The translations under genes and the position numbers were made by a program. This document shows, piece by piece, positions 20,209 to 42,101 of a DNA stretch of 64,000 bases. The notes beneath the pieces were generated by a model. That model ran no database searches, was not told the origin of the DNA, and saw nothing but the letters and a program-made list of their open reading frames with translations. Numbering within the stretch: the stretch's first letter is position 1; each line of letters starts with the position of its first letter. Origin of the DNA: an uncultured Chloroflexia bacterium (GTDB lineage: Bacteria > Chloroflexota > Limnocylindria > Limnocylindrales > CSP1-4); the NCBI GenBank assembly GCA_963789905.1, contig CAWBMK010000007.1, positions 72,747-136,746 on the forward strand. The letters are read 5' to 3'.

Positions 20209-20457
20209 ATGTGCAGAAGCATCAAGCAGCTCCGCCGCCCCGAAGAGGCGGCCACGACCGGCGAGATCGAGGCCGCCGCCCGCCAGTTCGTGCGAAAGGT
20301 CAGCGGCTATCGCGTCCCATCTCGGGCGAACGAGGATGCTTTCGAGGCCGCGATCGCCGACGTCGCGGGCAGCGCTCAGCGACTGCTCGAGGCCATCGGC
20401 GTGTCCGTCGAGGAGGGGCCCGATCGCTGGGTCCCATCGGCCGCTCGGGCTCGATGA
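20209..20457 (+). CDS. DUF2277-like small protein
   Basis: MCRSIKQLRRPEEAATTGEIEAAARQFVRKVSGYRVPS... matches conserved small actinobacterial proteins. ATG at 20209. Confidence 0.5.
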   Translation: MCRSIKQLRRPEEAATTGEIEAAARQFVRKVSGYRVPSRANEDAFEAAIADVAGSAQRLLEAIGVSVEEGPDRWVPSAARAR

Positions 20458-20638
20458 CGATCGACGCCGTCGCGACCGCCTGGTGGTCGCGCGACGGGCT
20501 CGATGGCGGACCCCCGATGGCGCCCGTCGCCGAGGGCGACATCGTCGCTCTCCTGTGGGCAGGCGGGTACCTCCGGGCGATGTCGTCACGCCATTGCCTC
20601 CGCGAGCCCGCTGGGTCCATCTTCCCGAAGCGCTGACG

Positions 20639-26154: not shown

Positions 26155-27267
26155 TCAGATGAACTGGCTGAGGGCTCGCTGGAGGAGGAACAGGCCGATC
26201 GGCAGGACGATCGCCGACACGAGGGCTCCGAGGGTGCCCGGCCGCCACGGCAGTGTCGGGAGCCTGTCGACGAGGTCGCGCTCCATCACGAGGACGCCTA
26301 GCGCATCGTGCATCCCGGCCGCCGCCGTCATATCACCTCGGTCAACCGCCGCGTGGATCGCCGCGATCGTCGCCTCGACCCGCAGTCCCACCTCGCCCTG
26401 GAGTCGCCGCTTCTCAGCGATGATCCGCTTCTGCATTCCACGGAGCGGCAGAACGAATACGGCCATAGCGGCCACGATACCGCCGCCGAGGTACAAGAAG
26501 AAGAACACGGCTCCCAGGCTCGTCGACAGCAACCCGAGAGTCAGGAAGGTTGGAAGAATGAAGACGAGGGCGATAACGATGGCCGTCCTCGACGTCAGGA
26601 TCGAGAAGGCATACAGCGGTGCGGGCCGAAAGAGATCCACGCGGGTAGCTCGCGAGTGTGTCCGGCCCACCTCTCGAAGCTGACGGAACGAGTGGAGGAC
26701 GAGGACCAGGATGAGGCTTCCGAAAAAGACCTCGCTCACATACCTGAACAGCATGCCAAGCGGCGACAAACCGACGACCTGGGAACCGACCGGATCGGCG
26801 AGGTAGTAGATCGGCGTCGTAATAGCCGTGAAGAGGAGGAGGGCCGCGGCTGGGCGGGCTGGAGCAACGGTCAGCACGTAGCGAAGGCGCGCGACCTCCG
26901 CATCGGTCGCAGCGAGTACCGGCCTGAACGTGTCGAGGGCGGTCCCTGCGATATCCGCGAGATAGCCCATCAGCCAGAGTGTCAGGGGCAGGAAGACGGC
27001 CCAGAACGCTTGTCCAGCAAGATAGACCGGGTCGCTGTTGCTCTGGAGGCCGGACGGGCCCAGCAAGCTCAGAACCACCGAGATCGCCGCGATGGCGATG
27101 TAAGCGAGCCACGTGGGGCCGGGCAGCCGCTCGATCCAGTTGATGAGCAGGTTCACCCAGCTCGGCCCGTACGGCCGCTCGTCGCCCGAAAGATGCTGGC
27201 TCGTCGCGGTCGCTGCCGTGCTGGACCCGGTCGCGAAGTCGGTGGCCGATGAGGCCTCGGTCGCCAT
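26155..27267 (-). CDS. Polytopic integral membrane protein of unknown function, embedded in the formate dehydrogenase operon
   Basis: 370 aa with about 9-10 hydrophobic helices. GC content is visibly lower than in the flanking genes. Confidence 0.55.
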   Translation of the reverse strand: MATEASSATDFATGSSTAATATSQHLSGDERPYGPSWVNLLINWIERLPGPTWLAYIAIAAISVVLSLLGPSGLQSNSDPVYLAGQAFWAVFLPLTLWLMGYLADIAGTALDTFRPVLAATDAEVARLRYVLTVAPARPAAALLLFTAITTPIYYLADPVGSQVVGLSPLGMLFRYVSEVFFGSLILVLVLHSFRQLREVGRTHSRATRVDLFRPAPLYAFSILTSRTAIVIALVFILPTFLTLGLLSTSLGAVFFFLYLGGGIVAAMAVFVLPLRGMQKRIIAEKRRLQGEVGLRVEATIAAIHAAVDRGDMTAAAGMHDALGVLVMERDLVDRLPTLPWRPGTLGALVSAIVLPIGLFLLQRALSQFI

Positions 27268-27285: not shown

Positions 27286-29199
27286 TCAGGCGACAGGTGT
27301 CGAGAGCTTCTCGATGCGGATGGCGGTCGCCTTGAACTCGGCCGTTCCCGACTTCGGGTCGGTGGCGTCGATCGTCAGGAGGTTCGTCGCCACGTCGTCC
27401 TGGAAGTGCAGGGTCATGAATGTGAGACCTGGCCGCAGGGATTCATCGATCCTGATGGGGACATTCAGCTCGCCCCGGCGTGAGCGGACATGAACGACCT
27501 CCCCGTCGCTGAGGTCATACGTCAGCGCGTCCTCGGGGCTGATGTCGAGCGATTCGCCTCGCCGCAGCGGCGATGTGTAGCCGGCCGTCTGGACGCCGGT
27601 GTTGAAGGAGTCGAGTCGCCGGCCGGTGGTGAGGCGGATCGGGAACTCGTCGGTCAGCCGATCGACCGGCGGATCGTGTTCGACGGGCATGAACGGTGCC
27701 GGAGCGCCGACGCGCGGTTGTGCCCACAGCCGGGAGTGGATGTACAGCTCGCCCGGGTGGGTCTCGTCCCAGCACGGCCAATGGATGCCGCCGAGCTCGT
27801 CGAGGCGTCGGTAGCTCATCCCGGCGTGGACCGGGGAGAGCGATCGGACCTCGTCCCAGACCCTTTCTGCGACCGGCTCGCCCCAGTCGTGGCCCATCCG
27901 GCGGGCGACCTCGAACACGATCCAGAGGTCATCGCGTGCCTCGCCCGGCGGGTCGATCGCCTTGCGCACCCGCTGGACCCGTCGCTCGCTGCTGGTCACC
28001 GTCCCCTCGGTCTCGGCGAACGAGGCTGCCGACGGCAGGACGACATCGGCCAGCGCGGCCGTCTTGGTCAGGAACAGGTCCTGGACGACGAGGGCCTCGA
28101 GACCGCCAAGGAGCTCGATTGCCGTGGCCTGGTCCGCCTCCGACTGGACCGGGTTCTCGCCGACGCAGTAGATCGCCCGGACCTCGCCGGTCTGCATGCC
28201 GTGGAACATCGCCGATAACGAGCGACCCCGGCGCGGCGGGATCGTCACGCCCCAGGCCGCCTCGAATTTCGCTCGCGCGGCGTCGTTCTCGACGTGCTGG
28301 AAGCCGGGCAGCCGGTCTGGCAGGGCGCCCATGTCGCCGCCCCCCTGGACGTTGTTCTGGCCGCGCAGCGGCTGCAGACCGCTTCCGTAGCGGCCGACGT
28401 GACCGGTCAGCAGCGACAACGAGATCAGGGCCAGGACGTTGTCGACCGCGTTGTGATGCTCGGTGATGCCCAGGGTCCAGCAGAGCTGGGCGGACTTGGC
28501 CGTCGCATACGCGTGCGCCAACTGGCGGATCGCTTCAGCGGGCACGCCCGTCTCGCGCTCCGCGTACTCAAGGGTGTACTTCTCGACGCCCTGGCGGTAG
28601 AGGTCGAAGCCGATCGTCGCGTTGTCGATGAACGCCCGGTTCTCGAGGCCGGCGGCGATGATCTCGCGGCCCACCGCGTTGGCCAGGGCGATGTCCGAAC
28701 CCACGTCCAGGCCGAGCCACAGGTCGGCCCACTCCGCGCTTGCCGTCCGGCGCGGATCGACCGCATACAGGCGAGCCCCGTTGTGGATCCCCTTGAGGAC
28801 ATGGTGGAAGAAGATGGGGTGAGCTTCGCGAGCGTTGCTACCCCACAAGATGATGAGGTCGGTCTCCTCGACCTCCCGGTATGAGCTGGTCCCGCCGCCA
28901 GCCCCGAACACGGTCGCCAGACCGGCGACAGAGGGTGCGTGTCAGGTGCGGTTGCAGCTGTCGATGTTGTTGCTGCCGATGACCGCGCGGCCGAACTTCT
29001 GCGTCGCGAAGTTCAGCTCGTTGGTGGCCTTCGAGCAGCTGAAGAGCCCGAACGCTCCGGGTCCGTGCCGGTCCACGACGCTCGAGAAGAGCTCCGCGGT
29101 CCGGTCCAGGGCCTCGGCCCAGCTCGCCCGCCGGAGATCGCCGGTCTTGCCGCCGACTCTGACGAGCGGGTGGGTGAGTCGGGCATAGGCCTGTGCCAT
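27286..29199 (-). CDS. fdhA: Formate dehydrogenase alpha subunit, catalytic molybdopterin (MopB) portion; selenocysteine-containing (in-frame TGA at 28942-28944)
   Basis: Two ORF-track entries (28942..29670 and 27286..28911) are in the same frame, separated only by TGA. Reading through gives ...GSNNIDSCNRT-U-HAPSVAGLATVFGAGGG..., matching E. coli FdhF ...GTNNVDCCARV-U-HGPSVAGL. Start at MAQAYARLTHPLV (ATG 29197-29199, GAGGA RBS). Confidence 0.85.
28913..28929 (-). other. SECIS-like hairpin downstream of the Sec UGA
   Basis: mRNA GUCGCC-GGUCU-GGCGAC is a perfect 6-bp stem with a GGUC-containing apical loop, starting 12 nt after the UGA, as in E. coli fdhF. Confidence 0.5.
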
Positions 29200-29322
29200 G
29201 CTCGATCCTCGACTCGATGGCGATGTGTACGCCACGCTCCCGAGTGTATCTCCGGGTTGTGGCATACGATATTGGCCCGCACCCGCGCGCTTCGAGCACC
29301 AACGGAACCAGGAAGGTCGGAC

Positions 29323-29574
29323 ATGCCGCTCTACCTCGATACACATCACCACGTCGAGGGCCTGACAGCCGAGGCGGTCGCCGGTGCCCATGCCGCCGAT
29401 CTCGGAGTCCAGGGGAAATACGACGTGCGCTACCTGCGGTACTGGTTCGATGAGGCGACCGGCAAGGTCTTCTGCCTCGTCGAGGCGCCCTCCGCGGAAG
29501 CTGCCATCCAGGTCCATCGCGAGGCTCACGGCCTCCTGGCGGACGAGATCACCGAGGTCAGAGAGGGGATCTGA
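29323..29574 (+). CDS. DUF4242 (SCO4226-like) small protein
   Basis: 83 aa MPLYLDTHHHVEGLTAEAVAGAHAADL...RYLRYWFDEATGKVFCLVEAPSAEAA. ATG 29323 with a GGAAGG RBS. Divergent from fdhA. Confidence 0.6.
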   Translation: MPLYLDTHHHVEGLTAEAVAGAHAADLGVQGKYDVRYLRYWFDEATGKVFCLVEAPSAEAAIQVHREAHGLLADEITEVREGI

Positions 29575-32332
29575 CCTCCAGGTCGACCGCGGGCGCGAGA
29601 AGGGCGATCGCCTCATCGAGCCCGGTCGACAGTCCGCCCTCCCAGGCAACGCCGAATGCCGCCGCGCCAAGGCTCTCGGTGAGGTCGGCGACTAGCCGAT
29701 CGTGTTCGGCCCGCGCGCCGACCTGGCGGGTTGCGCCGATCTCGAGGCGAAGCGCCTCGGCCGCGCCGAGGAGTCGTGCAGCCAGTCGCGGGTCAGTGGC
29801 CGCCACCGTTATCGCCAGTCGCTCGAGCGCCCTGACCGAGCCGGGTTTGTCGCCCAGCGTGCGCCGCATCTCGAGGCCCTCGCGATGCAGGGCGATCGCC
29901 TGTGTCGTCTCGCCGCGACTTGCCTCCGCATCGGCCAGGAGCATGAGCATCCGAGCGACACCGCGGCCGTCACCGATCGACCTATAGAGCGTCAGCGCTC
30001 GGGTGAGGATCTCTTCAGCCGCCGCAGGATCGCCGCTCGCGTGGACTGTCGCCCCCTGTTGGCCAAGGGCGTGCGCCTCGCCCCAGATGTCGCCCTCAGC
30101 ACGGAAGATCTCGGCCGCCTCCTCGAACGACCGAAACGCGCCCTCGTGGTCGCCCCGTCCCTCGGCAACACTGGCGAGATTCATGAGCTGGAAGGCCACG
30201 CCACGCCAATCGGACACCGACCGGGCGAGAGCGAGACCTTCCTCGTACAGCGCGACGGCGCGTTCCGAGTCGCCTTGCTGGACGCACAGGCTCGCAAGAT
30301 TGCTGAGGGCGGACGCGATGGCCAGGGGATTGCCGATCGCGCGCTGGGTGTCGACGCAGCGCTCCAGATAACGCATCGCCCCCTGTGGGTCGCCCCGCAG
30401 CCCCGCGATGACGGCCGCTCCCGTCAGTGCCGTGGCCCGCACCTCGCTGGCATCGCCCGCGTCGGCTTCCACTGCCCTGGCAAGCCAGGTGCTCGCTTCG
30501 GCGAGGGCGCCCCGGATCTCCCAATAGCGCCACAGGCCGGCCGCCATTCGAACCAGCGCATCACCCGACGATGGGTCAGACGCGCTCCAGTCGAGCGCCG
30601 CCCCGAGATTGGCACGCTCGCGATCGAACAAAGCGATCCACTCGGTCGGATCTGAGCCCCGGAAGAAGTCCGGCTTCGCTCGTTCGACGAGCGCGACGTA
30701 CCAGTCGCGGTGCCGACTCTGCGCCTCGCCGGCCTCCTCGCTCTCGACGAGCTTCTCGCGGGCGTATTCCCGAACAGTCTCGAGGAGTCGGTATCGGCCG
30801 CCGCCGCTCTCGACGTCAAGGATGACGAGCGACTTGTCGACAAGCCTGGACAGCAGATCCAGCACCTCGTGCGACTCGATGTCGGCGCCTCGACAGACGG
30901 CCTCGGCAGCTTCGAGCGTGAACGAACCCGCGAAAACGGCAAGCCGGCGCAGGATCGCCTTCTCCTGATCCGTCAGCAGGTCGTGGCTCCAATCCATGGC
31001 GGCACGGAGCGTTTGCTGGCGCTGAAGCGCGATCCTGCTGCCTCCGGTCAGGAGGCGGAACCGGTCATCCAGCCGGGCTGCGATCTGGTCGACGGGCATC
31101 GAGCGCACCCGAGCCGCCGCAAGCTCGAGCGCCAACGGGATGCCATCGAGGCTGCGGCAGATGCGCACGACGGCCGACGCACTCCGTTGGTCGATGGTGA
31201 ACGTGGGGTCGACGACCCGGGCACGATCGGCGAACAGGGCGACGGCCTCGTAGGTGAGCAGATTTCCGCTTGGCTGCCGGTCTGCGGCGTCAGGCAGCGA
31301 TAGCGACGGGACCCGATAGATCGTCTCGCCTGGGATGCCGAACGCCTCGCGGCTGGTGGCGATGATGCGGAGGTTCGGGCAGCCGCGCAGGAGCGCGTCG
31401 GCCAGCCGGGCCGCGGCGTCGACGAGGTGCTCGCAGTCGTCGAGGACGAGGAGGGTCGTCCGCGGCCGAAGATGGCTGAGGATCGAATTGATCGGCGCCG
31501 CGCCCGGTGGAGTGGCGATGCCAACGCTCGTCGCTACAGCTTGGGGGACGAGGCTCGGGTCGGTGATCGTGCCGAGCTCGACGACCCACACGCCATCCTG
31601 ATAGCGGTCGAGAAGATCGGCCGCCACATGTAGCGCCAGCCTCGTCTTCCCGATACCACCGGCTCCGGTCAGGGTCAGCATGGGCGACCCGGCAAGGAGC
31701 TCCCGGACCTGCACGGTCTCGGCGTCCCGGCCGACGAACCTCGTCAGGAGGCGTGGCAGATTGTTGGGAAGGGTGTCGAGTGACCGAAGGACGGGGAAGT
31801 CTTCGCGAAGTCCGTCTGCGGCGACCTGGTAGAGATGCTCGGGCCTGGCCAGGTCCTTGAGCCTGTGCTCGCCGAGGTCGATGAGTCGGACGCCATCCGG
31901 CACCCCGTGCCTGATGAGCTCGGCCGTCGTCTGGGAGATCAGGATCTGGCCTCCGTGACCCGCGGCCGCGATGCGCGCCGCTCGGTGGACGTCGATGCCG
32001 ACGTAGCCCGCAGCCGCCGTCTGCGGCTCGCCGGTATGGATACCCATCCGAACCAGGATCCTGACGTCGTCGGGCCAGGTGTGGGTTGCAACCGAACGTT
32101 GGGCCTCGAGCGTCGCCTCGAGAGCCGAGCGGGCACTCGCGAACGAATAGAAGAACCCGTCGCCGGCGACGTCGATCTCGCTCCCCTCATGGGCCCGGAA
32201 TGCCTGGCGCAGCAGGCGATTGTGGTCGTCGACGACTGCAGGCCAGCGATCCTTGAGGGCCGCCACGAGGGTCGTCGAGCCCTCGATGTCCGTGAAGAGA
32301 AACGTCACCGTCCCTTGGGAGTGGTCGGTCAT
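29558..32332 (-). CDS. Adenylate/guanylate cyclase domain - P-loop NTPase (NB-ARC/AAA) - TPR multi-domain regulator
   Basis: N-terminal class III cyclase motifs (VTFLFTDIEGST...GDGFFYSF). Then a Walker A GAGGIGKTRLA and C-terminal TPR repeats. ATG at 32330-32332 overlaps the selD stop. Confidence 0.8.
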   Translation of the reverse strand: MTDHSQGTVTFLFTDIEGSTTLVAALKDRWPAVVDDHNRLLRQAFRAHEGSEIDVAGDGFFYSFASARSALEATLEAQRSVATHTWPDDVRILVRMGIHTGEPQTAAAGYVGIDVHRAARIAAAGHGGQILISQTTAELIRHGVPDGVRLIDLGEHRLKDLARPEHLYQVAADGLREDFPVLRSLDTLPNNLPRLLTRFVGRDAETVQVRELLAGSPMLTLTGAGGIGKTRLALHVAADLLDRYQDGVWVVELGTITDPSLVPQAVATSVGIATPPGAAPINSILSHLRPRTTLLVLDDCEHLVDAAARLADALLRGCPNLRIIATSREAFGIPGETIYRVPSLSLPDAADRQPSGNLLTYEAVALFADRARVVDPTFTIDQRSASAVVRICRSLDGIPLALELAAARVRSMPVDQIAARLDDRFRLLTGGSRIALQRQQTLRAAMDWSHDLLTDQEKAILRRLAVFAGSFTLEAAEAVCRGADIESHEVLDLLSRLVDKSLVILDVESGGGRYRLLETVREYAREKLVESEEAGEAQSRHRDWYVALVERAKPDFFRGSDPTEWIALFDRERANLGAALDWSASDPSSGDALVRMAAGLWRYWEIRGALAEASTWLARAVEADAGDASEVRATALTGAAVIAGLRGDPQGAMRYLERCVDTQRAIGNPLAIASALSNLASLCVQQGDSERAVALYEEGLALARSVSDWRGVAFQLMNLASVAEGRGDHEGAFRSFEEAAEIFRAEGDIWGEAHALGQQGATVHASGDPAAAEEILTRALTLYRSIGDGRGVARMLMLLADAEASRGETTQAIALHREGLEMRRTLGDKPGSVRALERLAITVAATDPRLAARLLGAAEALRLEIGATRQVGARAEHDRLVADLTESLGAAAFGVAWEGGLSTGLDEAIALLAPAVDLEVRSPL

Positions 32333-33423
32333 CTCGTTGCCGCGATCAGGGCGATCCCTCGGCCGGTCTCGACGTGGCCGATCCACCAATGAGAGACGCC
32401 GCGGAAGGTGAGGTCCTGTCCAACGGCGTCGGCCGCGTCCTCCGGGACGGCCGCAAGGAGGCCGCCCGAGGTCTGCGGGTCGTGGGCGAGGACGACGCGT
32501 TCGGGGGGGACGTCCCGGTCGATCGTCACCGCATCGGCCACGGACCGGCGGTTATGGGCGGCACCCCCGGTCTCGACGCCGGCCCGCGCGTTGTCGAGCG
32601 CGCCGGCGAGGGCTGGCAGGCCGTCCGCCTCGATGACGAAGCGCGTCCGATTTCCGGCGCCGGCGTCGGTCCGGATCATCTCGGCGGCGTGGCCGAGCAG
32701 CCCGAAGCCGGTGACGTCGGTCGCGGCCCGGACGCCATGGGCCACGAGCACCTCCGAGGCCGCCCGGTTGAGGCGACGCATGGACTCGATGGCCCCGTCG
32801 AGGTCCTCGTCGGAGGTTCGACCCTGGCGCCGTCCGCTCACGAGGACGCCCGTGCCCAGGGGTTTCGTGAGCAGCAGGCGGTCTCCCGGTCGCGCGCCAC
32901 CCTTGCGCAGCAGACGGTCCGGATGGCCGGCGCCGACGACCGCCAAACCGTATTTTGGCTCCGGATCGCGGATCGTATGGCCACCGGCCAGGGTGCCCCC
33001 AGCCTCGCGGACGACGGAGGCCGCGCCATCGAAGATCGCGGCCATGGTCTCCCGGGGCAGATCCTCGGGCAGGGCGGCGATCGACAACGCGAACAGGACG
33101 CGGCCGCCCATGGCAAATATGTCGCTAACGGCGTTAGCCGCGGCGATCTCACCAAACGTCCGAGGGTCGTCGACGAGCGGTGGGAAGAAGTCGAGCGTCC
33201 CGATGATCGCCAGGTCGTCCGAGATGCGGTAGGCGGCGCCGTCATCGGGCGGATCCAGCCCGGCGATCATGTTTCGATCGCGATTCTCCCTATTCGTCGC
33301 ACCGAGCCCGGCGAGGGCCTCCGCGAGCAGATCGGCACCGAGCTTGGCCGCACATCCGCCGCAGTCCGTCAGGTCGGTGAGGCGGATGTCGATCGGTGTT
33401 GCGGGAGGCTCGAGCCGTGTCAT
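32329..33423 (-). CDS. selD: Selenide, water dikinase (selenophosphate synthetase), Cys-type
   Basis: IRLTDLTDCGGCAAKLGADLL...AISDIFAMGG...MTDVTGFGLLGH...DPQTSGGLL aligns along its full length with E. coli SelD. There is a Cys (not Sec) at the active-site position. Confidence 0.9.
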   Translation of the reverse strand: MTRLEPPATPIDIRLTDLTDCGGCAAKLGADLLAEALAGLGATNRENRDRNMIAGLDPPDDGAAYRISDDLAIIGTLDFFPPLVDDPRTFGEIAAANAVSDIFAMGGRVLFALSIAALPEDLPRETMAAIFDGAASVVREAGGTLAGGHTIRDPEPKYGLAVVGAGHPDRLLRKGGARPGDRLLLTKPLGTGVLVSGRRQGRTSDEDLDGAIESMRRLNRAASEVLVAHGVRAATDVTGFGLLGHAAEMIRTDAGAGNRTRFVIEADGLPALAGALDNARAGVETGGAAHNRRSVADAVTIDRDVPPERVVLAHDPQTSGGLLAAVPEDAADAVGQDLTFRGVSHWWIGHVETGRGIALIAATR

Positions 33424-33462
33424 GAGCCGCGATGATAGTGCGCCCGGCTATCCTCGAGGGTC

Positions 33463-34284
33463 ATGAGCATCGGGCGCACTGCGACAGGCATCGTCTTCGA
33501 GGTCGCCGGCCCGCCCACCCTCGAGGTCGCGCCCGTCGTTCTCCTCCATGCCGGCGTCGCCGATCGACGGATGTGGGACGTCGTGTGGGGCGATCTGACG
33601 ATGGATCGGCCGATCCTTCGGCTCGACCTCCGGGGTTTTGGTGAGTCGATAGCGAAGCCGGTGGGCCTGCTCCTCCATCACGCCGACGTGCTGGCGACGA
33701 TGGATTCCCTCGACATCCAACACGCTCACGTCGTGGGAGCGTCGATGGGAGCGGGCGTCGCGGTCGAGCTGGCGCTGGCGGCTCCAGACCGGGTCGTGTC
33801 TCTGCTGCTCGTCGGCCCGGGTGGCTCGCTCATCGAGCATCCGTCCGAATGGCTCAGTGCGGCCTGGCGGGCCGAGGTCGATGCCCTCGACGTGGGTGAC
33901 ACCGATGCCGCCGTGGAGGTCAACCTGCGGGCCTGGGTCGATGGGCCGGCGCGCGAGGCTCGCGAGGTCGACCCCGACGTCAGGGCATTCGTCGGCGAGA
34001 TGCAACGGCGCATCTTCGAGGTCACCGCGGACTGGGATGACGTCGAGGAAGACGAGCTCGATCCGGCGGCCGTCGACCGTCTCGCCGACATCGCCGCGCC
34101 CACGCTCGTCCTCGTAGGCGACGGCGACGTCGATACGATCCTCGAAGTCGCGGAGCGGGCGGCCGAGGAGATCCCCAATGTCCGCCTGGTGCGCTGGCCG
34201 GTCGTCGCCCACATGGCGTCGATGGAGCGCGCCGAGGAGTTCGTGAGCCTCGCCCGGGACTGGTTCGCGGCCAACGACAGCTGA
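33463..34284 (+). CDS. Alpha/beta hydrolase fold protein
   Basis: VVLLHAGVADRRMWD...GASMGAG nucleophile elbow. 273 aa. Confidence 0.7.
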   Translation: MSIGRTATGIVFEVAGPPTLEVAPVVLLHAGVADRRMWDVVWGDLTMDRPILRLDLRGFGESIAKPVGLLLHHADVLATMDSLDIQHAHVVGASMGAGVAVELALAAPDRVVSLLLVGPGGSLIEHPSEWLSAAWRAEVDALDVGDTDAAVEVNLRAWVDGPAREAREVDPDVRAFVGEMQRRIFEVTADWDDVEEDELDPAAVDRLADIAAPTLVLVGDGDVDTILEVAERAAEEIPNVRLVRWPVVAHMASMERAEEFVSLARDWFAANDS

Positions 34285-34317
34285 GGGCCGCAAAGCCCCG
34301 GCGATACCATCGCCGGC

Positions 34318-34414
34318 GGGAGCGGAGGGGTCCCGGTGGGTCCCCCGGTCTTCAAAACCGGTGACGCCGCGCTCGGCGTGGCGTGGTGGGTTCGACTCCC
34401 ATGCGCTCCCGCCA
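34318..34414 (+). tRNA. selC: tRNA-Sec (anticodon UCA)
   Basis: 97 nt with an acceptor stem GGGAGCG/CGCUCCC. The D arm is a 6-bp stem GGGUCC/GGGUCC (two G-U pairs) with a 4-nt loop CGGU, the tRNA-Sec hallmark. Anticodon arm CCGGU-CUUCAAA-ACCGG with UCA at 34352-34354. Long variable arm ACGCCG-CGCU-CGGCGU. T arm GUGGG-UUCGACU-CCCAU. Discriminator G and encoded CCA. Confidence 0.75.
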
Positions 34415-34512
34415 CGCGTCCCCTTGCGATCGAAGCACGGACGCAGGGTGACGCCGTCTCTATCGAGGGCTAGGCCCGACTACCCGCGACGCGGCCGGTC
34501 GGGGACGGCTGC

Positions 34513-34541
34513 TATAGTAGTCACCTAGGTAGTCACTGGAG
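34513..34541 (+). promoter_or_regulatory. Putative promoter/operator of the antitoxin-toxin operon
   Basis: TATAGT (-10-like) immediately followed by the direct repeat TAGTCACC-TAGG-TAGTCACT, then a GGAG RBS and ATG 34542. Confidence 0.35.
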
Positions 34542-34784
34542 ATGGCCGTGGCAGAGATCGGTATCAAGGAGCTCAAGGCCTTCGCTTCAGCGGTGATCGA
34601 GGACGTCGAGGGCGGCACCGCCTACGTCGTGACGAAGCGAGGACGCCCGGCGGCGGTACTTCTTCCGATCGACGAGGCTGAGGATCTCGTCCTCGCCAAC
34701 GCCGACGCGTACATCCGGATTCGCCGGCAAGGCCGGGCAGCCTACGCCAAGCGCCGGACGATCCCCCTGAGTGAGCTCGGCTGA
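34542..34784 (+). CDS. Type II antitoxin, Phd/YefM family
   Basis: 80 aa MAVAEIGIKELKAFASAVIEDVEGGTAYVVTKRGRPAAVLLPIDEAE, the Phd/YefM fold signature. Confidence 0.75.
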   Translation: MAVAEIGIKELKAFASAVIEDVEGGTAYVVTKRGRPAAVLLPIDEAEDLVLANADAYIRIRRQGRAAYAKRRTIPLSELG

Positions 34785-35076
34785 CGCTCCGTACGACGTC
34801 CAACTGGCGCCGGCGGCCGTTCGTGCGTTCCTGAAGCTCACGGCGATCGATCGAGGCCGGATCCGGCAGGCGCTCGAGGCCCTGGCCGGCACCGCCACCA
34901 GGAAAGGTCGCGGCGGGAAGGCAATCAAGACGATCCGGGGGACCGGCGATCGGTTTCACCGCCTCCGCGTCGGCGACTTTCGAATCATGTACGACCTCGT
35001 TGCCGAGGATCGAGTGGTACTCGTGTTGGGAATCGTCCACCGCTCCGACCTCGACCGCTGGCTCCGGAACCGCTGA
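34771..35076 (+). CDS. Type II toxin, RelE/ParE family
   Basis: GTG start overlapping the antitoxin 3' end. C-terminal RIMYDLVAEDRVVLVLGIVHRSD is typical of ParE/RelE. Confidence 0.7.
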   Translation: MSSADAPYDVQLAPAAVRAFLKLTAIDRGRIRQALEALAGTATRKGRGGKAIKTIRGTGDRFHRLRVGDFRIMYDLVAEDRVVLVLGIVHRSDLDRWLRNR

Positions 35077-35091
35077 TGCCTGATCTGGGCT

Positions 35092-36486
35092 GTGCGGTGT
35101 AACGTCCGCGAGATGGTCAGCGAGTCATCCCCGCGGCCCCCGGGCGTCGAGCGGTTGCTGAAGGCCGTGCGTCCGCTCGCCGGTCAGCGGGACGCCGACA
35201 TCCTCGTTCAGGCCACCCGGGCCGTCGTCGCGGACGAGCGCGATCGGCTTGCGCGGGGCGACGCACCCCGCCCGGTTGACGAACTCGCTGAGGCCGTTGT
35301 TGGTCGCCTTGACGCGGCGATGTCCGACGGATGGACGCCGATAATCAACGCTACCGGTGTGATCCTTCACACCAACCTGGGCCGGGCACCGTGGCCGGAC
35401 GCCGCCGTCGATGCCGCCCGGGCAGCGTCGGAGAATCTGTTCCTTGAGATGGACCGATCGTCGGGCCGGCGCGGGCCCCGATTCCGGGCTGCCGAGGAGC
35501 ACCTGATCGCCCTGACCGGGGCCGAGGATGCCCTCGTCACGAACAACAACGCGGCGGCAGTCGTGCTCGCCTGTCACCTTGCCGGTCGGCGTGGGATCGC
35601 CGTGGCCCGAGGCGAGCTCATCGAGATCGGCGGAGGAGTCCGGATCCCCGAGGTCGTTCGCCGCTCCGGTGCACGTCTCGTCGAGGTCGGCACGACCAAC
35701 AAGACCCGTGTGTCCGATTTCGAGGAGGTCCTCGCGGACGGTCGAGCTGCCGTCATCCTCCGGGTCCACGCCTCGAATTTCCGGATGAGTGGCTTCGTCG
35801 AAAGCCCCGACACGGCGGCGCTCGCCGCCATCGCGGCAGACCATGCCGCGATCGTCATCGACGACCTTGGCTCGGGTGCCCTGCTCGACACCGCGGCCTT
35901 CGGCCTGCCCCACGAACCGACGCCCATGGAACGGCTCCTGGCCGGGGCCGATCTCGTCACGTTCTCGGGCGACAAGCTCATCGGCGGGCCGCAGGCGGGC
36001 TTCATCGTCGGTCGGCGGGACCTCATCGCCCGGATCCGCAAGGACCCGCTGTCTCGGGCGATGCGACCGGACAAGGTGACGCTCGCCGCAGTCGCGGCCA
36101 CCCTGGCGATCTATGTCGCCGGAACGGCGACCCGGGAGATTCCAGTCTGGCGGATGATCGCCCAGTCGAGCGACGCGATCCGCGTCCGCGCGGAGTCGCT
36201 CTGTCGACGCCTCACGAAGCTCGGCCTTCCTGCCCTCCCGGTCCTTGTCGAGTCGACGATCGGCGGAGGCGCACTTCCTGAAGCGGTGCTTCCGTCGTGG
36301 GCGGTGGCTCTCTCGGACCCAAGCCCGGACCATCTGCTCGCGCGTCTCCGTGAGGGGATACCGGCCATCGTGGCGCGCATCGAGGCCGGCGCCGTCGTGC
36401 TCGACATGCGCACCGTCGACGAGCGGTGGGACGCCGAAGGTTCGCTGGCGGGTGCGCTGGTCCGCGCGCTGGGACGCGCTGGGTGA
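35092..36486 (+). CDS. selA: L-seryl-tRNA(Sec) selenium transferase
   Basis: VTNNNAAAVVLA...GELIEIGGGVRIPEV...FSGDKLIGGPQAGFIVGRRDLIARI aligns with E. coli SelA, including the PLP-Lys region (FSGDKL). Confidence 0.9.
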   Translation: MRCNVREMVSESSPRPPGVERLLKAVRPLAGQRDADILVQATRAVVADERDRLARGDAPRPVDELAEAVVGRLDAAMSDGWTPIINATGVILHTNLGRAPWPDAAVDAARAASENLFLEMDRSSGRRGPRFRAAEEHLIALTGAEDALVTNNNAAAVVLACHLAGRRGIAVARGELIEIGGGVRIPEVVRRSGARLVEVGTTNKTRVSDFEEVLADGRAAVILRVHASNFRMSGFVESPDTAALAAIAADHAAIVIDDLGSGALLDTAAFGLPHEPTPMERLLAGADLVTFSGDKLIGGPQAGFIVGRRDLIARIRKDPLSRAMRPDKVTLAAVAATLAIYVAGTATREIPVWRMIAQSSDAIRVRAESLCRRLTKLGLPALPVLVESTIGGGALPEAVLPSWAVALSDPSPDHLLARLREGIPAIVARIEAGAVVLDMRTVDERWDAEGSLAGALVRALGRAG

Positions 36487-38315
36487 CGGTCGTCATCGGG
36501 ACGGCCGGGCACATCGATCACGGCAAGACGACCCTGCTCCGGGCGCTCACCGGGATCGACGCCGATCGGCTCCCGGAGGAGAGGGCGCGGGGCATGACGA
36601 TCGATGTCGGTTATGCCCACATGACCCTCCCAGATGGCGACGTCCTCGACTTCGTCGACGTCCCAGGGCATGACCGGCTCATCGGAAACATGCTCGTCGG
36701 CGCCGCTGAGGTCGACGCCGCCCTGCTCGTGGTCGCGGCCGATGATGGGCCGCGGGCGCAGACGCATGAGCATCTCCGCCTCATCGATGCACTCGGCATC
36801 GACCACGGCATCGTCGTCATCACGAAGTCGGACCTCACCGGTCCCGGCGATCCGAGGACGATGTCGACCGAGCAGGCCGTCCGTGAGATCGTGGCCGGGA
36901 CAGGCCTGGCTCATTCACCCGTCATCGCCGTCTCTGCGTCGACTGGCAGTGGTCTCGACGAGTTGCGGACGGCACTTATCGATCTGCGCGATGCAGTCCG
37001 GCCCGAAGTCACCGCTCGAGAGGGCCCGGCGAGACTGGCCATCGATCGCATCTTCACGATCCGCGGCCACGGTGCGGTGGTGACCGGATCGCTACGCGGC
37101 GGCGCGTTCGAGACAGGCCAGGTCGTGCGGATCGAGCCCGGGCACAGGCGGGCACGAATCCGCGAGATCCAGAGCCGAAATGAGCCGACGAACCGGGCGA
37201 CCGGGGGTCGAACGGCGTTGAACCTTACGGGGGTCGATGCCGACCACTTGCATCGAGGCATGGTGATCGTCCCAGCGGACGACCTTCGCCTGGCCGTCAG
37301 CGATCGCCTGCTCGTGGTCCTCCGCTCACCTGCCCGGCGATCAACGGGCGCCTGGCGACTCCATCTCGGGACGGCCGAGGTCGGCGCCGAGCTCGGTCGT
37401 GGCCAGCGGGAGCACGCCGAGCTTGCGACCGGCGCCACGACGACGCTCCTGCGCCTCGATCGACCGGTCGCGATGGTGCTGGGCGATCGATTCGCCCTCC
37501 GGTCCAGCAGCGACACGACGGCCATCGGCGGCCGTGTCATCGATCCCGACCCGCCGCGTGGGCCGTCCCGCCGACGCGTCGACACGGATCGGCTCGCAGC
37601 GCTCGCGAACGCCGGGACCTGGGACGAACGCGACGCCGCCCGACTCGACCTGCATGGCTCGCTCGTCGCGGTCGCTGGGTCGGTCAGGCTGGCCCCGGAC
37701 GTCGAAGCCGGGATCGATGCGGCCGCCATCGCGGCAGTCCGCGACCATCACGTCAACGAGCCCGACTCGGCCGGACTCTCCGTCGCCGATATCCGGCCCC
37801 TGCTCGCCAGAGCGCTGCGTCGCCGGGTGACGATCGATGCCCGTGCGGCAGGCGCGGCGATCGAGGCGCGCCTTGGCGGTCTCGTCGCGACAGGGCGGCT
37901 GGCCCGGGACGGCGACCGCCTTCGCGACCCATCGCGCCCAGCCGGCACGCCGGCCGTCGTCCTCGCGGCCATGGATCGGCTGGAGACCCGGTTGGCGGTC
38001 CATTCCCCGCCGCCGCTCGCCGAGGCCGCGCGTGAGGCTGGCTGTCCGTCGGACGGTGTCAGGGCCCTTGAGAATGCCGGCCGCATCGTCCGACTCGAGC
38101 CGGATCTCGCCTATGCGTCATCGACATTCCGGGAGCTCGAAGCCCTGGCAGTGTCTATGGCCCGGGCGGGTCCGCTCACGCCGGCGGCGTACCGCGACGC
38201 CACGGACACCTCGCGACGCTACGTCATGGCCCTCCTCGAGGAGTTCGATCGACGGGGCGTGCTCCGGAGGACGGATGCCGGTCGCGTGCCGGGTCCGCGG
38301 GCCGCGGCGACGTGA
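36483..38315 (+). CDS. selB: Selenocysteine-specific translation elongation factor
   Basis: GTG start (GTGA overlap with the selA stop). VIGTAGHIDHGKTTLLRALTGIDADRLPEERARGMTIDVGYA...DVPGHDRL is a near-identical motif order to E. coli SelB. The C-terminal winged-helix region is present. Confidence 0.9.
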   Translation: MTVVIGTAGHIDHGKTTLLRALTGIDADRLPEERARGMTIDVGYAHMTLPDGDVLDFVDVPGHDRLIGNMLVGAAEVDAALLVVAADDGPRAQTHEHLRLIDALGIDHGIVVITKSDLTGPGDPRTMSTEQAVREIVAGTGLAHSPVIAVSASTGSGLDELRTALIDLRDAVRPEVTAREGPARLAIDRIFTIRGHGAVVTGSLRGGAFETGQVVRIEPGHRRARIREIQSRNEPTNRATGGRTALNLTGVDADHLHRGMVIVPADDLRLAVSDRLLVVLRSPARRSTGAWRLHLGTAEVGAELGRGQREHAELATGATTTLLRLDRPVAMVLGDRFALRSSSDTTAIGGRVIDPDPPRGPSRRRVDTDRLAALANAGTWDERDAARLDLHGSLVAVAGSVRLAPDVEAGIDAAAIAAVRDHHVNEPDSAGLSVADIRPLLARALRRRVTIDARAAGAAIEARLGGLVATGRLARDGDRLRDPSRPAGTPAVVLAAMDRLETRLAVHSPPPLAEAAREAGCPSDGVRALENAGRIVRLEPDLAYASSTFRELEALAVSMARAGPLTPAAYRDATDTSRRYVMALLEEFDRRGVLRRTDAGRVPGPRAAAT

Positions 38316-38884
38316 CGGTGTCCGCCATCGTCCTGGCGGGTGGTCGATCGTCGCGGTTCGGTCGCGACAAGCTTGCCGAGCCGCTCGATGGCCGACCGCT
38401 GCTTGCCCATGCGGTCGGGGTCGTCCAGGCGATCGCCGACGACGTCGTCGTCGTTCTCGCGCCGGACGCACCCGAGCCGAGCCTGGCGGGCGTTCGCTTC
38501 GCTCGCGATCCTGAGCCATTCGGCGGCCCGCTCGTCGGCCTCCTCGCCGGCCTCGAGGTGGTGACCGAGGAGACCGTCCTCGTCGTCGCCGGGGATATGC
38601 CTTCTCTCGACCCGGGCGTGTTGCGGCTGGTCATCGAGTGCCTCGACGGTGTCCAGGCGAGCGCGCTTCTCGACGGCGAGACCATCCGCCCACTCCCGGC
38701 GGCATTCCTGCGCTCTGCCGCACGAGCGGCGGGGTTGCGACTCCGCGATACCGGCGAGCGCAGCCTGCGCGCCCTCTTTGGCGAGATTGTGGTCCGGACG
38801 ATCCCCGACACGGCATGGCGTGCCCTCGACCCGACAGCCGTCACGCTGCGTGACATCGATCGTCCGTCCGATCTTCCGGCCTAG
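38312..38884 (+). CDS. mobA: Molybdenum cofactor guanylyltransferase
   Basis: GTG start overlapping the selB stop. AIVLAGGRSSRFGRDKL and VVAGDMP motifs. Confidence 0.8.
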   Translation: MTVSAIVLAGGRSSRFGRDKLAEPLDGRPLLAHAVGVVQAIADDVVVVLAPDAPEPSLAGVRFARDPEPFGGPLVGLLAGLEVVTEETVLVVAGDMPSLDPGVLRLVIECLDGVQASALLDGETIRPLPAAFLRSAARAAGLRLRDTGERSLRALFGEIVVRTIPDTAWRALDPTAVTLRDIDRPSDLPA

Positions 38885-38894
38885 GATAGGGACG

Positions 38895-39977
38895 ATGGAT
38901 CCGCAGATTCGGGCGATGTTCAGGCCGGCGGAGGGCACCGCCTATCTCGATTCGGCGACCTATGGCCTCCCTCCTGAGGCCACGACTCGGGCGATGCGGG
39001 CTGCGGTCGATGCCTGGCAGGCGGGCACCGCCGACTGGGTGTCCGACTGGGATCGGCCGGCAGAGGCGGCTCGCGAATCGTTCGCCCGGATCGTCGGCGT
39101 AGCGCCCGGCGCTGTGGCATTCATTCCGTCCGTGTCGGTCGGCGTGGGCATCGTCGCTTCGACCCTCGGACCTGGCGATGACGTCGTCGTACCGACCGAT
39201 GAGTTCCGCTCCGTCCTGTTCCCGCTGCTCGTCGCCCGCGAGCGAGGCGCCCATATCCGCGAGGTGCCGCTCGAGTCCATCGCCGAGGAGATCCGCCCGG
39301 GTACGACATTGGTCGCCGCGACGGTGGTCCAGATGCAATCCGGCCGCGTCGTCGACGTCGAGGCGATCGTCGCGCGAGCCAACGCCGTAGGCGCCCGGGT
39401 CCTTCTCGATGCGACCCACGCCATCCCGTTCGTCCCGCTCCAGGAGGTGGCCGCCCGCGCGGACTATCTCGTCGCGGCGGCCTACAAGCATCTCCTGTGC
39501 CCCCGCGGTGTGGCCTTCATGACCGTCCGACCGGACCGCTTGCTGGAGCTGCCGGCGCACAACGCGAACTGGCGCACCTCGGAGCGGCCGTTTGACACCT
39601 TCTTCGGTGGCCCCCTGGCGCTGCCGGAGACCGCGTCGCGGCTCGATGTGTCGCTGGCCTGGATCCCCTGGATCGCGGCGGTCGAATCGTTGCGGTTGAT
39701 CGCCGATTGGTCGGCATCCGGCGCGCTCGACGAGCCGGTCGTGCTGGCGCGGGCGATGGCCGAGGAGCTCGGCCTGAGGTGGGGCGGAGCGAGCCTCGTC
39801 TGTGCGCCGGTCGCCGACGGAGAGGCCGTCAGGCGCGCGCTCCGGGATGTCGGTGTCAAGGCCGCCGTTCGCGGCACCGCGATCCGCCTCTCGACCCACG
39901 TCTACAACGATCGAGCCGATATCGATCGCGCGGTCGCCGCCCTGGCGCCGTTCGTCGGTGCGCCGGAATTCGCATGA
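38895..39977 (+). CDS. Class V aminotransferase-fold PLP enzyme (cysteine desulfurase / selenocysteine lyase-like)
   Basis: 360 aa with a PLP-Lys context AAYKHLLCPRGVAFM. Start at MDPQIRAMF (ATG 38895). Confidence 0.65.
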   Translation: MDPQIRAMFRPAEGTAYLDSATYGLPPEATTRAMRAAVDAWQAGTADWVSDWDRPAEAARESFARIVGVAPGAVAFIPSVSVGVGIVASTLGPGDDVVVPTDEFRSVLFPLLVARERGAHIREVPLESIAEEIRPGTTLVAATVVQMQSGRVVDVEAIVARANAVGARVLLDATHAIPFVPLQEVAARADYLVAAAYKHLLCPRGVAFMTVRPDRLLELPAHNANWRTSERPFDTFFGGPLALPETASRLDVSLAWIPWIAAVESLRLIADWSASGALDEPVVLARAMAEELGLRWGGASLVCAPVADGEAVRRALRDVGVKAAVRGTAIRLSTHVYNDRADIDRAVAALAPFVGAPEFA

Positions 39978-40531
39978 CGACGTCCGTCGATCTGCTCCAC
40001 GCCGGCTACATCCGCGACGACGGCAGCCGCGTCGCCAGCAGCGTCAGCCTCATCCGCGACGGCGACGCCATCCTCGTGGCCGATCCCGGCATGGTGGCCG
40101 ACCGCTCGCTCATCATCGATCCGCTGAACGCGCTGGGAGTCGATCCGGCGGCCGTCACTCACGTCTGGATCAGCCACCATCACCCCGACCACACGATGAA
40201 CATCGCCCTGTTCCCGAACGCCGAGGTCATCGACTTCTGGGCCCGCTATCGCGACGATCTGTGGCTCGATCACGACGGCGACGGCTACCGGATCACGCCC
40301 CATGCCCAACTGTGGCTGACGCCGGGGCACACGGAAGAGGACACGGCTCTCATCGTCGAGGCGGACGACGGCGTGTACGCACTGACCCACCTCTGGTGGC
40401 GGCCGGATCGGTCGCCGACGATCGATCCAGTCGCCGCCGACCAGGCGGCTCTCGAGCGCGCGCGGGAGCGCGTCCTCGCGGTCGCCGACATCGTCATCCC
40501 GGGCCACGGGGACCTGTTCCGAGTCCGCTGA
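39974..40531 (+). CDS. MBL-fold metallo-hydrolase
   Basis: HxHxDH motif (WISHHHPDHTMN). The ATG overlaps the upstream stop (ATGA). Confidence 0.7.
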   Translation: MTTSVDLLHAGYIRDDGSRVASSVSLIRDGDAILVADPGMVADRSLIIDPLNALGVDPAAVTHVWISHHHPDHTMNIALFPNAEVIDFWARYRDDLWLDHDGDGYRITPHAQLWLTPGHTEEDTALIVEADDGVYALTHLWWRPDRSPTIDPVAADQAALERARERVLAVADIVIPGHGDLFRVR

Positions 40532-40538
40532 CCAGTGG

Positions 40539-41282
40539 TCAGGCGGCGCGTGTCGCGTCGATGTTGAGTCGGACGTAGTCGATCATCGGTTCGCCGAGCA
40601 GGGTCGCCACATCGTGTACGAAGGCTGGGCGTTCGTCCGCCGGCAGGCGTTCGAGGTGCGGACCGAGGACCACGGTCGCAAGGAAGCTCTCAAACGGCTC
40701 ACCAGGTTCGAAGGCGGTGGTCTCCGCCGTGAGCCAGCAGCGGATATGGTCGAACCCGGCATTCGCGAGGCGGCTCTCGGTCGCTTCCGCCGTCTGGAAG
40801 TGAGCCGGGCCGAGCCACCCGTCGCCGATGCCCGCGAGGACCGCCATGACCCGAGTGACGTTGCCGGCGCCGCCGCACTGGGCGGCCAGCCGGCCCCCCG
40901 GCCGAAGGACGGCGGCCAGATTGCGGAAGAGGGCATCGTGGTCGGGCACCCAATGGAACGTCGCTGTCGATAGCACAGCGTCAACTGGTCCGGGCAGCGG
41001 CAATGTCTCGCTGAGGTCGGCGACGACATACGAGACGCGGTCGCCGAAACGGCCGAGGCGTTCGCGAGCGGATTCGATCATCGATGGTGATCCATCCAGG
41101 GCGATGACATGCCCCGCCCCGAGCCGCTCGCATAGAAGCTCTGTCACACGACCCGATCCGCAGCCGGCATCGAGCACGGTCTCGGTTCCGACGAGCGCCA
41201 GCCGATCGAGGACCGCTGATCCCCAGCGCGTCTGTGGATCGGAGACTCGGTCGTATGTCGTGGCATCCCAGTCTCGGGTCAT
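40539..41282 (-). CDS. Class I SAM-dependent methyltransferase (trans-aconitate methyltransferase-like)
   Basis: VLDAGCGSGRVTELL motif I. Start at MTRDWDATTYDR. Confidence 0.7.
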   Translation of the reverse strand: MTRDWDATTYDRVSDPQTRWGSAVLDRLALVGTETVLDAGCGSGRVTELLCERLGAGHVIALDGSPSMIESARERLGRFGDRVSYVVADLSETLPLPGPVDAVLSTATFHWVPDHDALFRNLAAVLRPGGRLAAQCGGAGNVTRVMAVLAGIGDGWLGPAHFQTAEATESRLANAGFDHIRCWLTAETTAFEPGEPFESFLATVVLGPHLERLPADERPAFVHDVATLLGEPMIDYVRLNIDATRAA

Positions 41283-41393
41283 TCGTGCTCCGTGTCCTCC
41301 GGCCGACACCATTGACCGTCGCTGCTATCGCCGCCAGTGTCGCAGCGGGCTGTCGAAACGGGCAAGGACGGCGCGCCACTAAAATCCCGGGCA

Positions 41394-42101
41394 ATGATTG
41401 GGCCTATCGCCTTGGTCGGGTCGGGCGAATTCCTCCCCCCGATGGCGGAATTCGATCGACTCCTGCTCGAGGCGTCCGGCGCTGCGCGGCCGCGCGTCGC
41501 GATCCTGCCGACGGCCTCATGGCCAGACGGCGAGGAGACGTTCTGGCGCTGGGCCGAGATGGGAGTCGAGCATTTTCGTTCGCTCGGCGCGGAGGTCGAG
41601 GCGGTGCCCGTCAGCGATCACGCGGCGGCCTGCGATCCCGCCTACGCCCAGGCGGTTGGAGAAGCCGACCTGATCTACATGTCGGGCGGCAAACCCGACC
41701 ACCTTCTTGACACCCTCGACGGTTCCGCGGTCTGGGCTGCGGCGCGCGCGGCGAACGACCGGGGCGCGGTCATCGCCGGCTGCTCGGCCGGGGCAATGGT
41801 CCTCGCCGATCGTCAGCCGCGCTTCAGGCGGGTGACCTTGCCGTTCCCGCTGCGCTGGCGTGAGTCACTCGGCGTTGTCGGGGCCGCCGCGATCCTGCCC
41901 CACTACGACAGCGTGCCCGAGACGCTCTGGGCGATCTTCGCGCTGCAGGCGCCGGAGGGCGTGGCGATCGTCGGGATCGACGACGATACGGCCTTCCTCG
42001 GGCGTGGCGGCGCGTGGCAGGTCCACGGCAGCGGCCGGGTCACGATCTGGCACGGTCGGCGACGGTCACGTCACCGAGCCGGCGACTGCGTGACCCTCTA
42101 G
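41394..42101 (+). CDS. Peptidase S51 / cyanophycinase-like (type 1 glutamine-amidotransferase-like fold)
   Basis: IALVGSGEF...YMSGGKPDHL...GCSAGAM. Start chosen at MIGPIALVG. Confidence 0.6.
   Translation: MIGPIALVGSGEFLPPMAEFDRLLLEASGAARPRVAILPTASWPDGEETFWRWAEMGVEHFRSLGAEVEAVPVSDHAAACDPAYAQAVGEADLIYMSGGKPDHLLDTLDGSAVWAAARAANDRGAVIAGCSAGAMVLADRQPRFRRVTLPFPLRWRESLGVVGAAAILPHYDSVPETLWAIFALQAPEGVAIVGIDDDTAFLGRGGAWQVHGSGRVTIWHGRRRSRHRAGDCVTL

Follow-up and report, generated by a model that had tools for sequence, protein, structure and literature searches.

A selenocysteine-decoding locus with a MobA-like gene beside a selenoprotein formate dehydrogenase in Limnocylindrales-type Chloroflexota

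Introduction

The DNA described here is a stretch of 64,000 nucleotides (contig CAWBMK010000007.1, positions 72,747 to 136,746, assembly GCA_963789905.1) from an uncultured Chloroflexia bacterium, and this whole stretch is called the window hereafter. It carries genes for selenocysteine (Sec) decoding, that is, selD, selC, selA and selB, next to the genes of a formate dehydrogenase (FDH), and selB is followed on the same strand by a MobA-like gene, by a gene for a pyridoxal 5'-phosphate (PLP) enzyme of class V fold (AT hereafter) and by a gene for a hydrolase of the metallo-β-lactamase fold (MBL hereafter). In a preliminary description of this DNA, AT and MBL were regarded as plausible helpers in the use of selenium, so the relationships between these two genes and the sel genes are discussed here together with the Sec-decoding locus itself.

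The guanine + cytosine (G + C) content is uniformly about 69% across the window, and the closest named relatives of the locus are metagenome-assembled genomes (MAGs) of Candidatus Limnocylindrales. The gene map of the window was made from six-frame open reading frames (ORFs) and from scans with the hidden Markov models (HMMs) of NCBIfam and Pfam. Related loci, which are given numbers preceded by L, were collected by exact-protein look-ups and by two alignment scans, one with AT against species-representative genomes (80 loci) and the other with MBL against metagenome contigs (80 loci), and flanks of 10 kb were examined for each locus.

The Sec-decoding genes and the MobA-like gene

The window holds SelA, SelB with its winged helix, a tRNA-Sec with the anticodon UCA, SelD, and a UGA codon accompanied by a putative Sec insertion sequence (SECIS), that is, all five components by which Sec decoding is recognized (Table 1). 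SelD, SelA and SelB each exceed the equivalog cut-offs of NCBIfam, and at E-values of 1e-93 to 1e-135 their matches cannot be due to chance. The C-terminal winged-helix SECIS-binding domain of SelB is recognized by PF09107 (50.2 bits, residues 560-602) and also by PF25461. SelD is of the Cys type, because the catalytic residues of the Escherichia coli enzyme, Cys17 and Lys20, correspond to Cys24 and Lys27 in the alignment of the two proteins. Compared with E. coli, the functions of selA, selB, selC and selD are orthologous at the equivalog level, and SelD is 38% identical, with both catalytic residues retained. E. coli differs in the arrangement of these genes: neither selC nor selD is linked to selAB there, and mobA maps elsewhere. 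Every gene named in the preliminary description was thus found again at its place by HMM scans, ARAGORN or Rfam, and a compact Sec-decoding locus beside its own selenoprotein FDH, as proposed there, is borne out by the presence of all components together with a UGA-containing fdhA.

The product of the gene behind selB has the NTP_transf_3 fold, and its top matches in the PDB are 2e8b of Aquifex and 1fr9 and 1e5k of E. coli, all of which are MobA. It shares with these proteins the N-terminal motif LAGGxSxRxGxDK and an internal GDMP, and differs from them in having no MobB domain. The most economical explanation is that this MobA-like protein would make the bis-molybdopterin guanine dinucleotide (bis-MGD) cofactor for FdhA. 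The coding regions from selA to MBL are very closely packed. Four consecutive start codons were originally said to overlap the upstream stop codons, and this is true of three of the four junctions (GTGA at 36483, GTGA at 38312 and ATGA at 39974), while at the junction of mobA and AT a spacer of 10 nt lies between the stop codon TAG at 38884 and the start codon ATG at 38895.

Table 1. Features of the window, and genes found in the corresponding slots of related loci (coordinates of the last two rows are those of the loci named)
Feature	Coordinates	Strand	Evidence and remarks
fdhD (FdhD/NarQ sulfurtransferase, FDH maturation)	20336..21490	+	PF02634 223.5 bits
FdhA N-terminal Fe-S polypeptide (2Fe-2S, 2x 4Fe-4S, Mo-type Fe4S4)	23140..24258	-	PF13510, PF00037/PF12838, PF04879
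NuoE/NuoF-like fusion, NAD(H)-side diaphorase subunit of FDH	24252..26123	-	PF01257, PF01512, PF10531, PF10589
Membrane protein, 370 aa, hydrophobic	26155..27267	-	no Pfam match
FdhA catalytic subunit, selenoprotein	27286..29199	-	PF00384 213.7 bits, PF01568 84.6 bits
SECIS-like hairpin	28907..28943	-	GUCGCC/GGCGAC upper stem, GGUCU loop
SCO4226-like small protein	29323..29574	+	PF14026 84.6 bits
Adenylate-cyclase/AAA ATPase/TPR regulator-type gene	29558..32332	-	PF00211, PF13191, TPR
selD, selenophosphate synthetase, Cys-type	32329..33423	-	TIGR00476 341.8 bits (cut-off 125)
α/β-Fold hydrolase between selD and selC	33463..34284	+	PF00561, PF12697
selC, tRNA-Sec, anticodon UCA	34316..34414	+	ARAGORN; RF01852 74.4 bits (gathering score 47)
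Phd/YefM-family antitoxin	34542..34784	+	TIGR01552 36.3 bits, PF02604 36.4 bits
ParE/RelE-family toxin	34771..35076	+	PF05016 32.5 bits
selA, selenocysteine synthase	35092..36486	+	TIGR00474 449.3 bits (cut-off 267.9); PF03841 389.8 bits
selB, Sec-specific elongation factor	36483..38315	+	TIGR00475 311.7 bits (cut-off 242.25)
MobA-like NTP transferase, probably molybdenum cofactor guanylyltransferase	38312..38884	+	PF12804 110.3 bits; GTGA overlap with selB
AT, class-V-fold PLP enzyme, SufS-like fold, PLP-Lys198 present	38895..39977	+	PF00266 63.7 bits
MBL, MBL-fold hydrolase, 185 aa, MBLAC1-like	39974..40531	+	PF00753 46 bits; HHHPDH motif; ATGA overlap with AT
Methyltransferase in the selC-selA slot	L021 5318..5990; L022 5361..6045; L026 5368..6040; L043 5322..6010		
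Amidohydrolase in the mobA-MBL slot	L006 1763..3412; L007 3545..5290; L008 4160..5761		also in L090-L095 and 17 metagenome contigs

The formate dehydrogenase and its UGA codon

The selenoprotein of the locus is the catalytic subunit of FDH, and it is the only one detected within the window. An in-frame TGA in its gene (28942..28944) corresponds to the U of the conserved motif SCNRT-U-HAPSV, and the hairpin GUCGCC-GGUCU-GGCGAC begins 15 nt 3' of the UGA, so the neighboring Sec-containing FDH claimed in the preliminary description is real. The folding z-score of the hairpin (-0.89) is not significant, and its energy is unexceptional for the GC-rich context. The hairpin is called SECIS-like on account of its position and its GGUC-type loop, and in both respects, a loop of this type and a place directly 3' of the UGA, it resembles that of E. 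coli.

FdhA is split into two polypeptides and permuted: the catalytic Sec part is followed by the 370-aa membrane protein, which sits between it and the NuoEF-like subunit, and the N-terminal Fe-S part comes last, with the Mo-type Fe4S4 domain at its very end. The relatives closest to the Fe-S polypeptide (53-83% identity) are short and several of them end at the same point, and the split therefore looks conserved in the lineage rather than caused by an assembly error; the matches at 36-45% identity include many fused FdhA proteins of 770-1130 aa. The FDH genes are followed by fdhD, which is outside the range covered by the preliminary description and about 17 kb from mobA on the upstream side, so that the region holds both genes for maturation of the molybdenum cofactor.

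Conservation of the sel locus

The order selC-selA-selB-mobA is kept in more than 40 related loci of the Limnocylindrales type, including L020-L022, L026, L028, L043, L090-L094 and about 29 metagenome contigs, and selD on the opposite strand precedes it wherever the sequence of the locus is long enough to show this. The MobA-like gene follows selB in every related sel locus examined. Because this order is kept, the mobA-like gene of this lineage is regarded as a constant member of the selAB operon, in third place. The proposal that mobA belongs to one operon with selA and selB is thus favored by conservation and fits a supply of bis-MGD to FdhA, and these genes are likely to be transcribed together. 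In L140 and L142, Sec-fdhA lies directly downstream of selD.

Clusters of this kind have been described before. The sel genes and fdhA commonly share one cluster or operon (PMC5029168), and the order fdn-selDAB-selC was described as highly conserved (PMC2830990). As in fdnG-selD-selA-selB-selC of Corynebacterium aurimucosum (PMC2830990) and in the general pattern (PMC5029168), the sel genes of the window are clustered with the gene for a UGA-containing FDH α subunit. Unlike in these fdh-selABD-selC clusters, however, selD and selC-selA-selB are divergently oriented, the selAB operon includes a MobA-like gene, the surroundings of selC contain a toxin-antitoxin (TA) pair and a hydrolase as insertions, and FdhA is encoded as two polypeptides.

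The PLP enzyme

The AlphaFold model of AT (predicted local distance difference test score, pLDDT, 84) has type II cysteine desulfurases, CsdB among them, as its nearest structures (Foldseek template-modelling scores 0.78-0.82, 17-23% identity among the matches listed). AT has in common with SufS, CsdA and CsdB (PDB 1jf9, 1kmk and 6o11) the fold, the PLP lysine and the PLP-site Asp, and its K198 aligns with the PLP lysine K226 of E. coli SufS. However, its identity with them is 18-25%, it is about 45 residues shorter, it has no SufE, SufU or CsdE partner nearby, and the segment of about 20 residues that contains the catalytic Cys364 of SufS is deleted in AT and in the four members of its family aligned with it. 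The only near-invariant Cys of the family, C303, lies elsewhere. AT also scores far below the cut-offs of the curated models, namely 56.1 against 475.1 bits for SufS, 35.5 against 607 for CsdA, 18.8 against 525 for SclA and 64.2 against 352 for TIGR01976. Since the Cys364 segment is absent and all these cut-offs are missed, AT is not taken as a member of the canonical cysteine desulfurase or Sec lyase families.

The genomic context of AT was surveyed in the species-level loci. AT lies beside mobA or selB in six of the 63 loci with enough upstream sequence (a seventh, L016, has a short flank), and in about 90% of the species-level loci no sel gene is found within 10 kb. In addition, AT is missing from 28 of the 29 metagenome contigs in which MBL is linked to sel genes, and from L090-L094. 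In a neighbor-joining (NJ) tree the sel-linked ATs, including those of the window and three close relatives, form one clade, in which unlinked members are also found. As the sel-linked ATs fall in a single clade, their linkage to the sel genes is explained by vertical synteny, and repeated independent recruitment of AT to sel genes is rejected. Elsewhere the commonest neighbor is an aldehyde dehydrogenase gene that directly precedes AT in the same orientation (16-22 loci), and genes for enolase-superfamily, Gfo/Idh/MocA, DapA-like and class-III aminotransferase proteins occur around such ATs. The aldehyde dehydrogenase suggests the classical amine-aldehyde-acid pairing, and the AT family most likely consists of true aminotransferases or lyases without persulfide chemistry.

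The preliminary description saw AT as a plausible Sec-lyase-like helper, MBL as a plausible handler of selenide or persulfide, and the genes from selA to MBL as one operon of five genes; on this reading AT would give selenium to SelD. Some of the evidence does point in this direction: AT shares its fold with the type II desulfurases, among them CsdB, known as the "selenocysteine lyase" of E. coli, and keeps the PLP lysine. Cys-to-Ala mutants of NifS-like enzymes retain Sec-lyase activity, so a Cys-less AT could still cleave Sec. The junctions in the window are tight or overlapping, and no terminator-like site was found in the stretch from selA to the stop codon of MBL on the + strand, although such a scan is uninformative for Chloroflexota with 69% G + C. 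Furthermore, the candidate selenium genes listed in the literature include one for a PF00266 protein near selD (PMC5029168). Against these points stand the absence of AT from most related sel operons, the predominance of AT loci that have no sel genes, the low scores with SclA, SufS and CsdA, and the nature and position of MBL described in the next section. The proposal is thereby weakened, though not formally refuted, and it is quite unlikely as a whole; a role of AT and MBL as selenium helpers, which was deduced from their position, finds no support in family assignment, in the active sites or in the comparison of loci.

The MBL-fold hydrolase and the variable slot

The best solved relative of MBL is human MBLAC1 (PDB 4v0h, E 4.3e-18, residues 34-184 of the query against 80-237 of the chain), and the match extends over the full domain, with both the HxHxDH motif and the C-terminal metal ligands. 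The two proteins are alike over 151 residues, in the HxHxDH metal site and in a C-terminal PGHG motif, whereas the MBL of the window is bacterial, has 185 instead of 266 aa and is without a histone mRNA substrate. The PDB matches at E<=0.01 are MBLAC1, TM0894, acyl-homoserine lactone (AHL) lactonases and 6auf ("beta-lactamase-like protein"), none of them named as a persulfide dioxygenase or glyoxalase II, and the GloB model TIGR03413, which has a cut-off of 200.8, gives a score of 21.1 bits. The candidate functions of persulfide dioxygenase and glyoxalase II thus find no support, and MBL is of the MBLAC1-like type and not of the persulfide or glyoxalase type.

The genes past MBL (methyltransferase, MFS, S51, zinc finger, sbcCD and EamA) are as well conserved as MBL itself. 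Because these unrelated downstream genes are equally conserved, the linkage of MBL to the sel genes is explained as synteny of a backbone, which together with MBL measures about 15 kb. In the window itself, MBL is followed by a convergent methyltransferase gene and then by genes for an S51 peptidase and a zinc-finger protein and by sbcCD-like genes. Beside a distant MBL homologue of 55% identity in L171, where no sel genes are nearby, there is a convergent gene (10614..12215, - strand) for a 533-aa protein, which aligns with almost the whole Aminotran_5 profile (140.9 bits); the match of the window AT to this profile is partial.

What lies between mobA and MBL is variable. In the 29 linked metagenome contigs this slot is empty in 11, occupied by an amidohydrolase gene on the - strand in 17, and occupied by both AT and the amidohydrolase in one, and AT is found alone in it in the window, L020, L022 and L043, from all four of which the amidohydrolase is absent. 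The latter, an opposite-strand and convergent Amidohydro_3/Amidohydro_1 gene of 530-580 aa, usually parts the sel operon (or AT) from MBL, so that in most relatives MBL behind it belongs to a separate transcription unit. Even the close relatives L006-L008, whose ATs are 69-80% identical with that of the window, have the amidohydrolase between AT and MBL, and for this reason the ATGA junction of AT and MBL in the window is considered to be derived. A conserved five-gene operon is rejected, since the amidohydrolase interrupts it in L006-L008 and in most contigs, and many of these have no AT. In seven contigs with no amidohydrolase between mobA and MBL (L151, L148, L160, L123, L150, L143 and L153) the gap between these two genes is constant at 435-452 nt and might hold a small ORF or a remnant; a Pfam scan of the ORFs upstream of MBL in L121 gave no match.

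Other genes around selC and selD

Several features were omitted from the preliminary description, namely the TA pair, the α/β-fold hydrolase, the SCO4226-like gene and the overlap of the selD stop codon with the start codon of the cyclase gene. The α/β-fold hydrolase is a variable insert, and relatives have selD beside selC without it. The Phd and ParE genes overlap by 14 nt, sit on the strand of the operon between selC and selA and have the features of a type II TA pair. No homologues of this pair were found in the selC-selA slot of any related locus, so it is a window-specific insert and not a conserved component of the slot. In the relatives the same slot is empty, with selC straight before selA, in some and filled with a different gene in others. 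In four sel-linked relatives (L021, L022, L026 and L043) it holds a gene for an S-adenosylmethionine (SAM)-dependent methyltransferase of about 215 aa, which resembles TehB below the threshold (15.9 bits) and which, from its position, is a candidate selenium or tellurium methylase.

The SCO4226-like gene ("nickel-responsive", PF14026) is divergent from fdhA and convergent with the end of the regulator gene, and it occupies an apparent intergenic gap. The stop codon of selD shares ATGA (32329..32332, - strand) with the start codon of the adenylate-cyclase/AAA/TPR gene, whose product has about 925 aa, and this overlap suggests that selD may be co-expressed with a signaling protein. Paralogues of the latter adjoin AT in L015, L077, L083 and L085, possibly by chance, as the family is recurrent in these loci. 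No sigma-70-like sites were found in a scan of 32000..41500, which is uninformative for Chloroflexota of 69% G + C, and a tblastn search of plasmids with SelD added nothing.

Interpretation of the region

The region is probably the standard, vertically inherited Sec-decoding machinery of Limnocylindrales-type Chloroflexota beside an FDH selenoprotein, with AT and MBL outside the conserved unit. In the mechanism proposed, SelD produces selenophosphate, SelA turns the Ser-tRNA-Sec made from selC into Sec-tRNA-Sec, and SelB, for which the downstream hairpin would act as a guide, brings the latter to the fdhA UGA codon. The MobA-like guanylyltransferase, presumed to be translationally coupled to selB, most likely supplies bis-MGD to FdhA, and FdhD would sulfurate this cofactor. 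AT occupies the variable slot between mobA and the backbone (MBL, methyltransferase, S51 peptidase, zinc-finger, sbcCD and EamA genes), and the MBLAC1-like hydrolase, a backbone gene, joined the operon here through the absence of the amidohydrolase present in L006-L008.

Some observations weigh against this explanation. Firstly, the MobA-like protein stays under all curated MobA equivalog cut-offs, with 69-79 bits where 152-379 are called for (TIGR02665, 69.3 against 151.85; NF001457, 71.8 against 164; NF011056, 79.3 against 379). Secondly, in nine of the ten related loci that carry AT after mobA, AT is on the same strand with a tight spacing of about 9-57 nt, L007 with an extra ORF between the two genes being the exception, and such spacing would fit membership of AT in the operon. 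Thirdly, in L053, a Chloroflexi MAG from palsa, the stop codon of AT overlaps the start codon of fdhD (TGATG), and the genes at 9971..16560 are AT, fdhD, a helix-turn-helix (HTH) regulator and an ORF of 1059 codons that combines a molybdopterin oxidoreductase with a MobA-like domain. The L053 AT belongs to a different clade from the sel-linked ATs and provides the only independent link, which is to fdhD and MobA and not to selAB. This coupling hints at a real tie to the maturation of molybdenum enzymes; the element common to L053 and the window is Mo-bisMGD maturation, not selAB.

From these facts it can be argued by analogy that AT might work with MobA and FdhD in Mo-bisMGD maturation, for example by mobilizing sulfur for FdhD, in which case its link would be to the molybdoenzyme and not to selenium. 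IscS-FdhD and NifS4-XdhC are the proposed analogues, FdhD is encoded in the window, the fold of AT is SufS-like, and AT always stands directly after mobA in the sel-linked clade. In L053, about 1.5 kb separate fdhD from the downstream oxidoreductase with the MobA-like domain. However, the Cys segment that forms the persulfide is missing family-wide, which makes the canonical transfer from a desulfurase to FdhD impossible. Moreover, L053 is one independent fdhD case among 80 loci, for which a rough post-hoc estimate gives a chance probability of a few per cent, most members of the AT family are found in catabolic clusters, and sel-mobA operons are commonly without AT. Such a partnership is considered unlikely.

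Finally, in 29 of the 33 informative contigs (the lineage at >=65% MBL identity) mobA is followed by MBL at a distance of 0.1-6 kb, in spite of the turnover of the intervening genes. MBL is on the same strand as mobA there, and 11 of the contigs have it directly after mobA. Furthermore, it is very strongly conserved, with 71-88% identity among the top 120 matches compared with 43-61% for mobA, and MBLAC1 is an RNA 3'-end endonuclease acting on histone pre-mRNA (PMC6303110). Taken together, these points would suit a Sec/FDH accessory of the lineage, either an RNA-processing nuclease with the selC-selA transcript or tRNA-Sec as its substrate, or an enzyme handling metals or chalcogens. The equal conservation of the unrelated methyltransferase, MFS, S51 and sbcCD genes further downstream argues instead for backbone synteny, the convergent gene usually separates MBL from the operon, and no sel genes are near MBL in four contigs at 70-73% identity and in all three informative contigs at 52-58%. 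An accessory role of MBL is thus very unlikely, and vertically inherited Sec-decoding machinery with AT and MBL outside the conserved unit is preferred.

Significance for the Chloroflexota

The core Sec island and mobA beside a Sec-containing FDH are a known arrangement in a new lineage. The region documents the use of Sec for an NAD-type FDH in Limnocylindrales-type Chloroflexota, which is expected and helps annotation, and it indicates that these bacteria keep the Sec machinery and the MobA-like gene as one conserved unit. There is a small chance that at least one of AT and MBL is a true accessory factor that has not been described, that is, AT as a dedicated chalcogen-mobilizing partner of MobA and FdhD (or of SelD) in the maturation of the Sec/Mo-bisMGD FDH, or MBL as a lineage-specific component in the Sec/FDH system, and such a role, if real, is more likely to be tied to the maturation of the molybdenum cofactor and FDH than to the delivery of selenium. 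If a Cys-less AT were a partner of FdhD and MobA or of SelD, it would represent a new route of sulfur or selenium delivery without an enzyme persulfide, serving a molybdoenzyme or the synthesis of selenophosphate.

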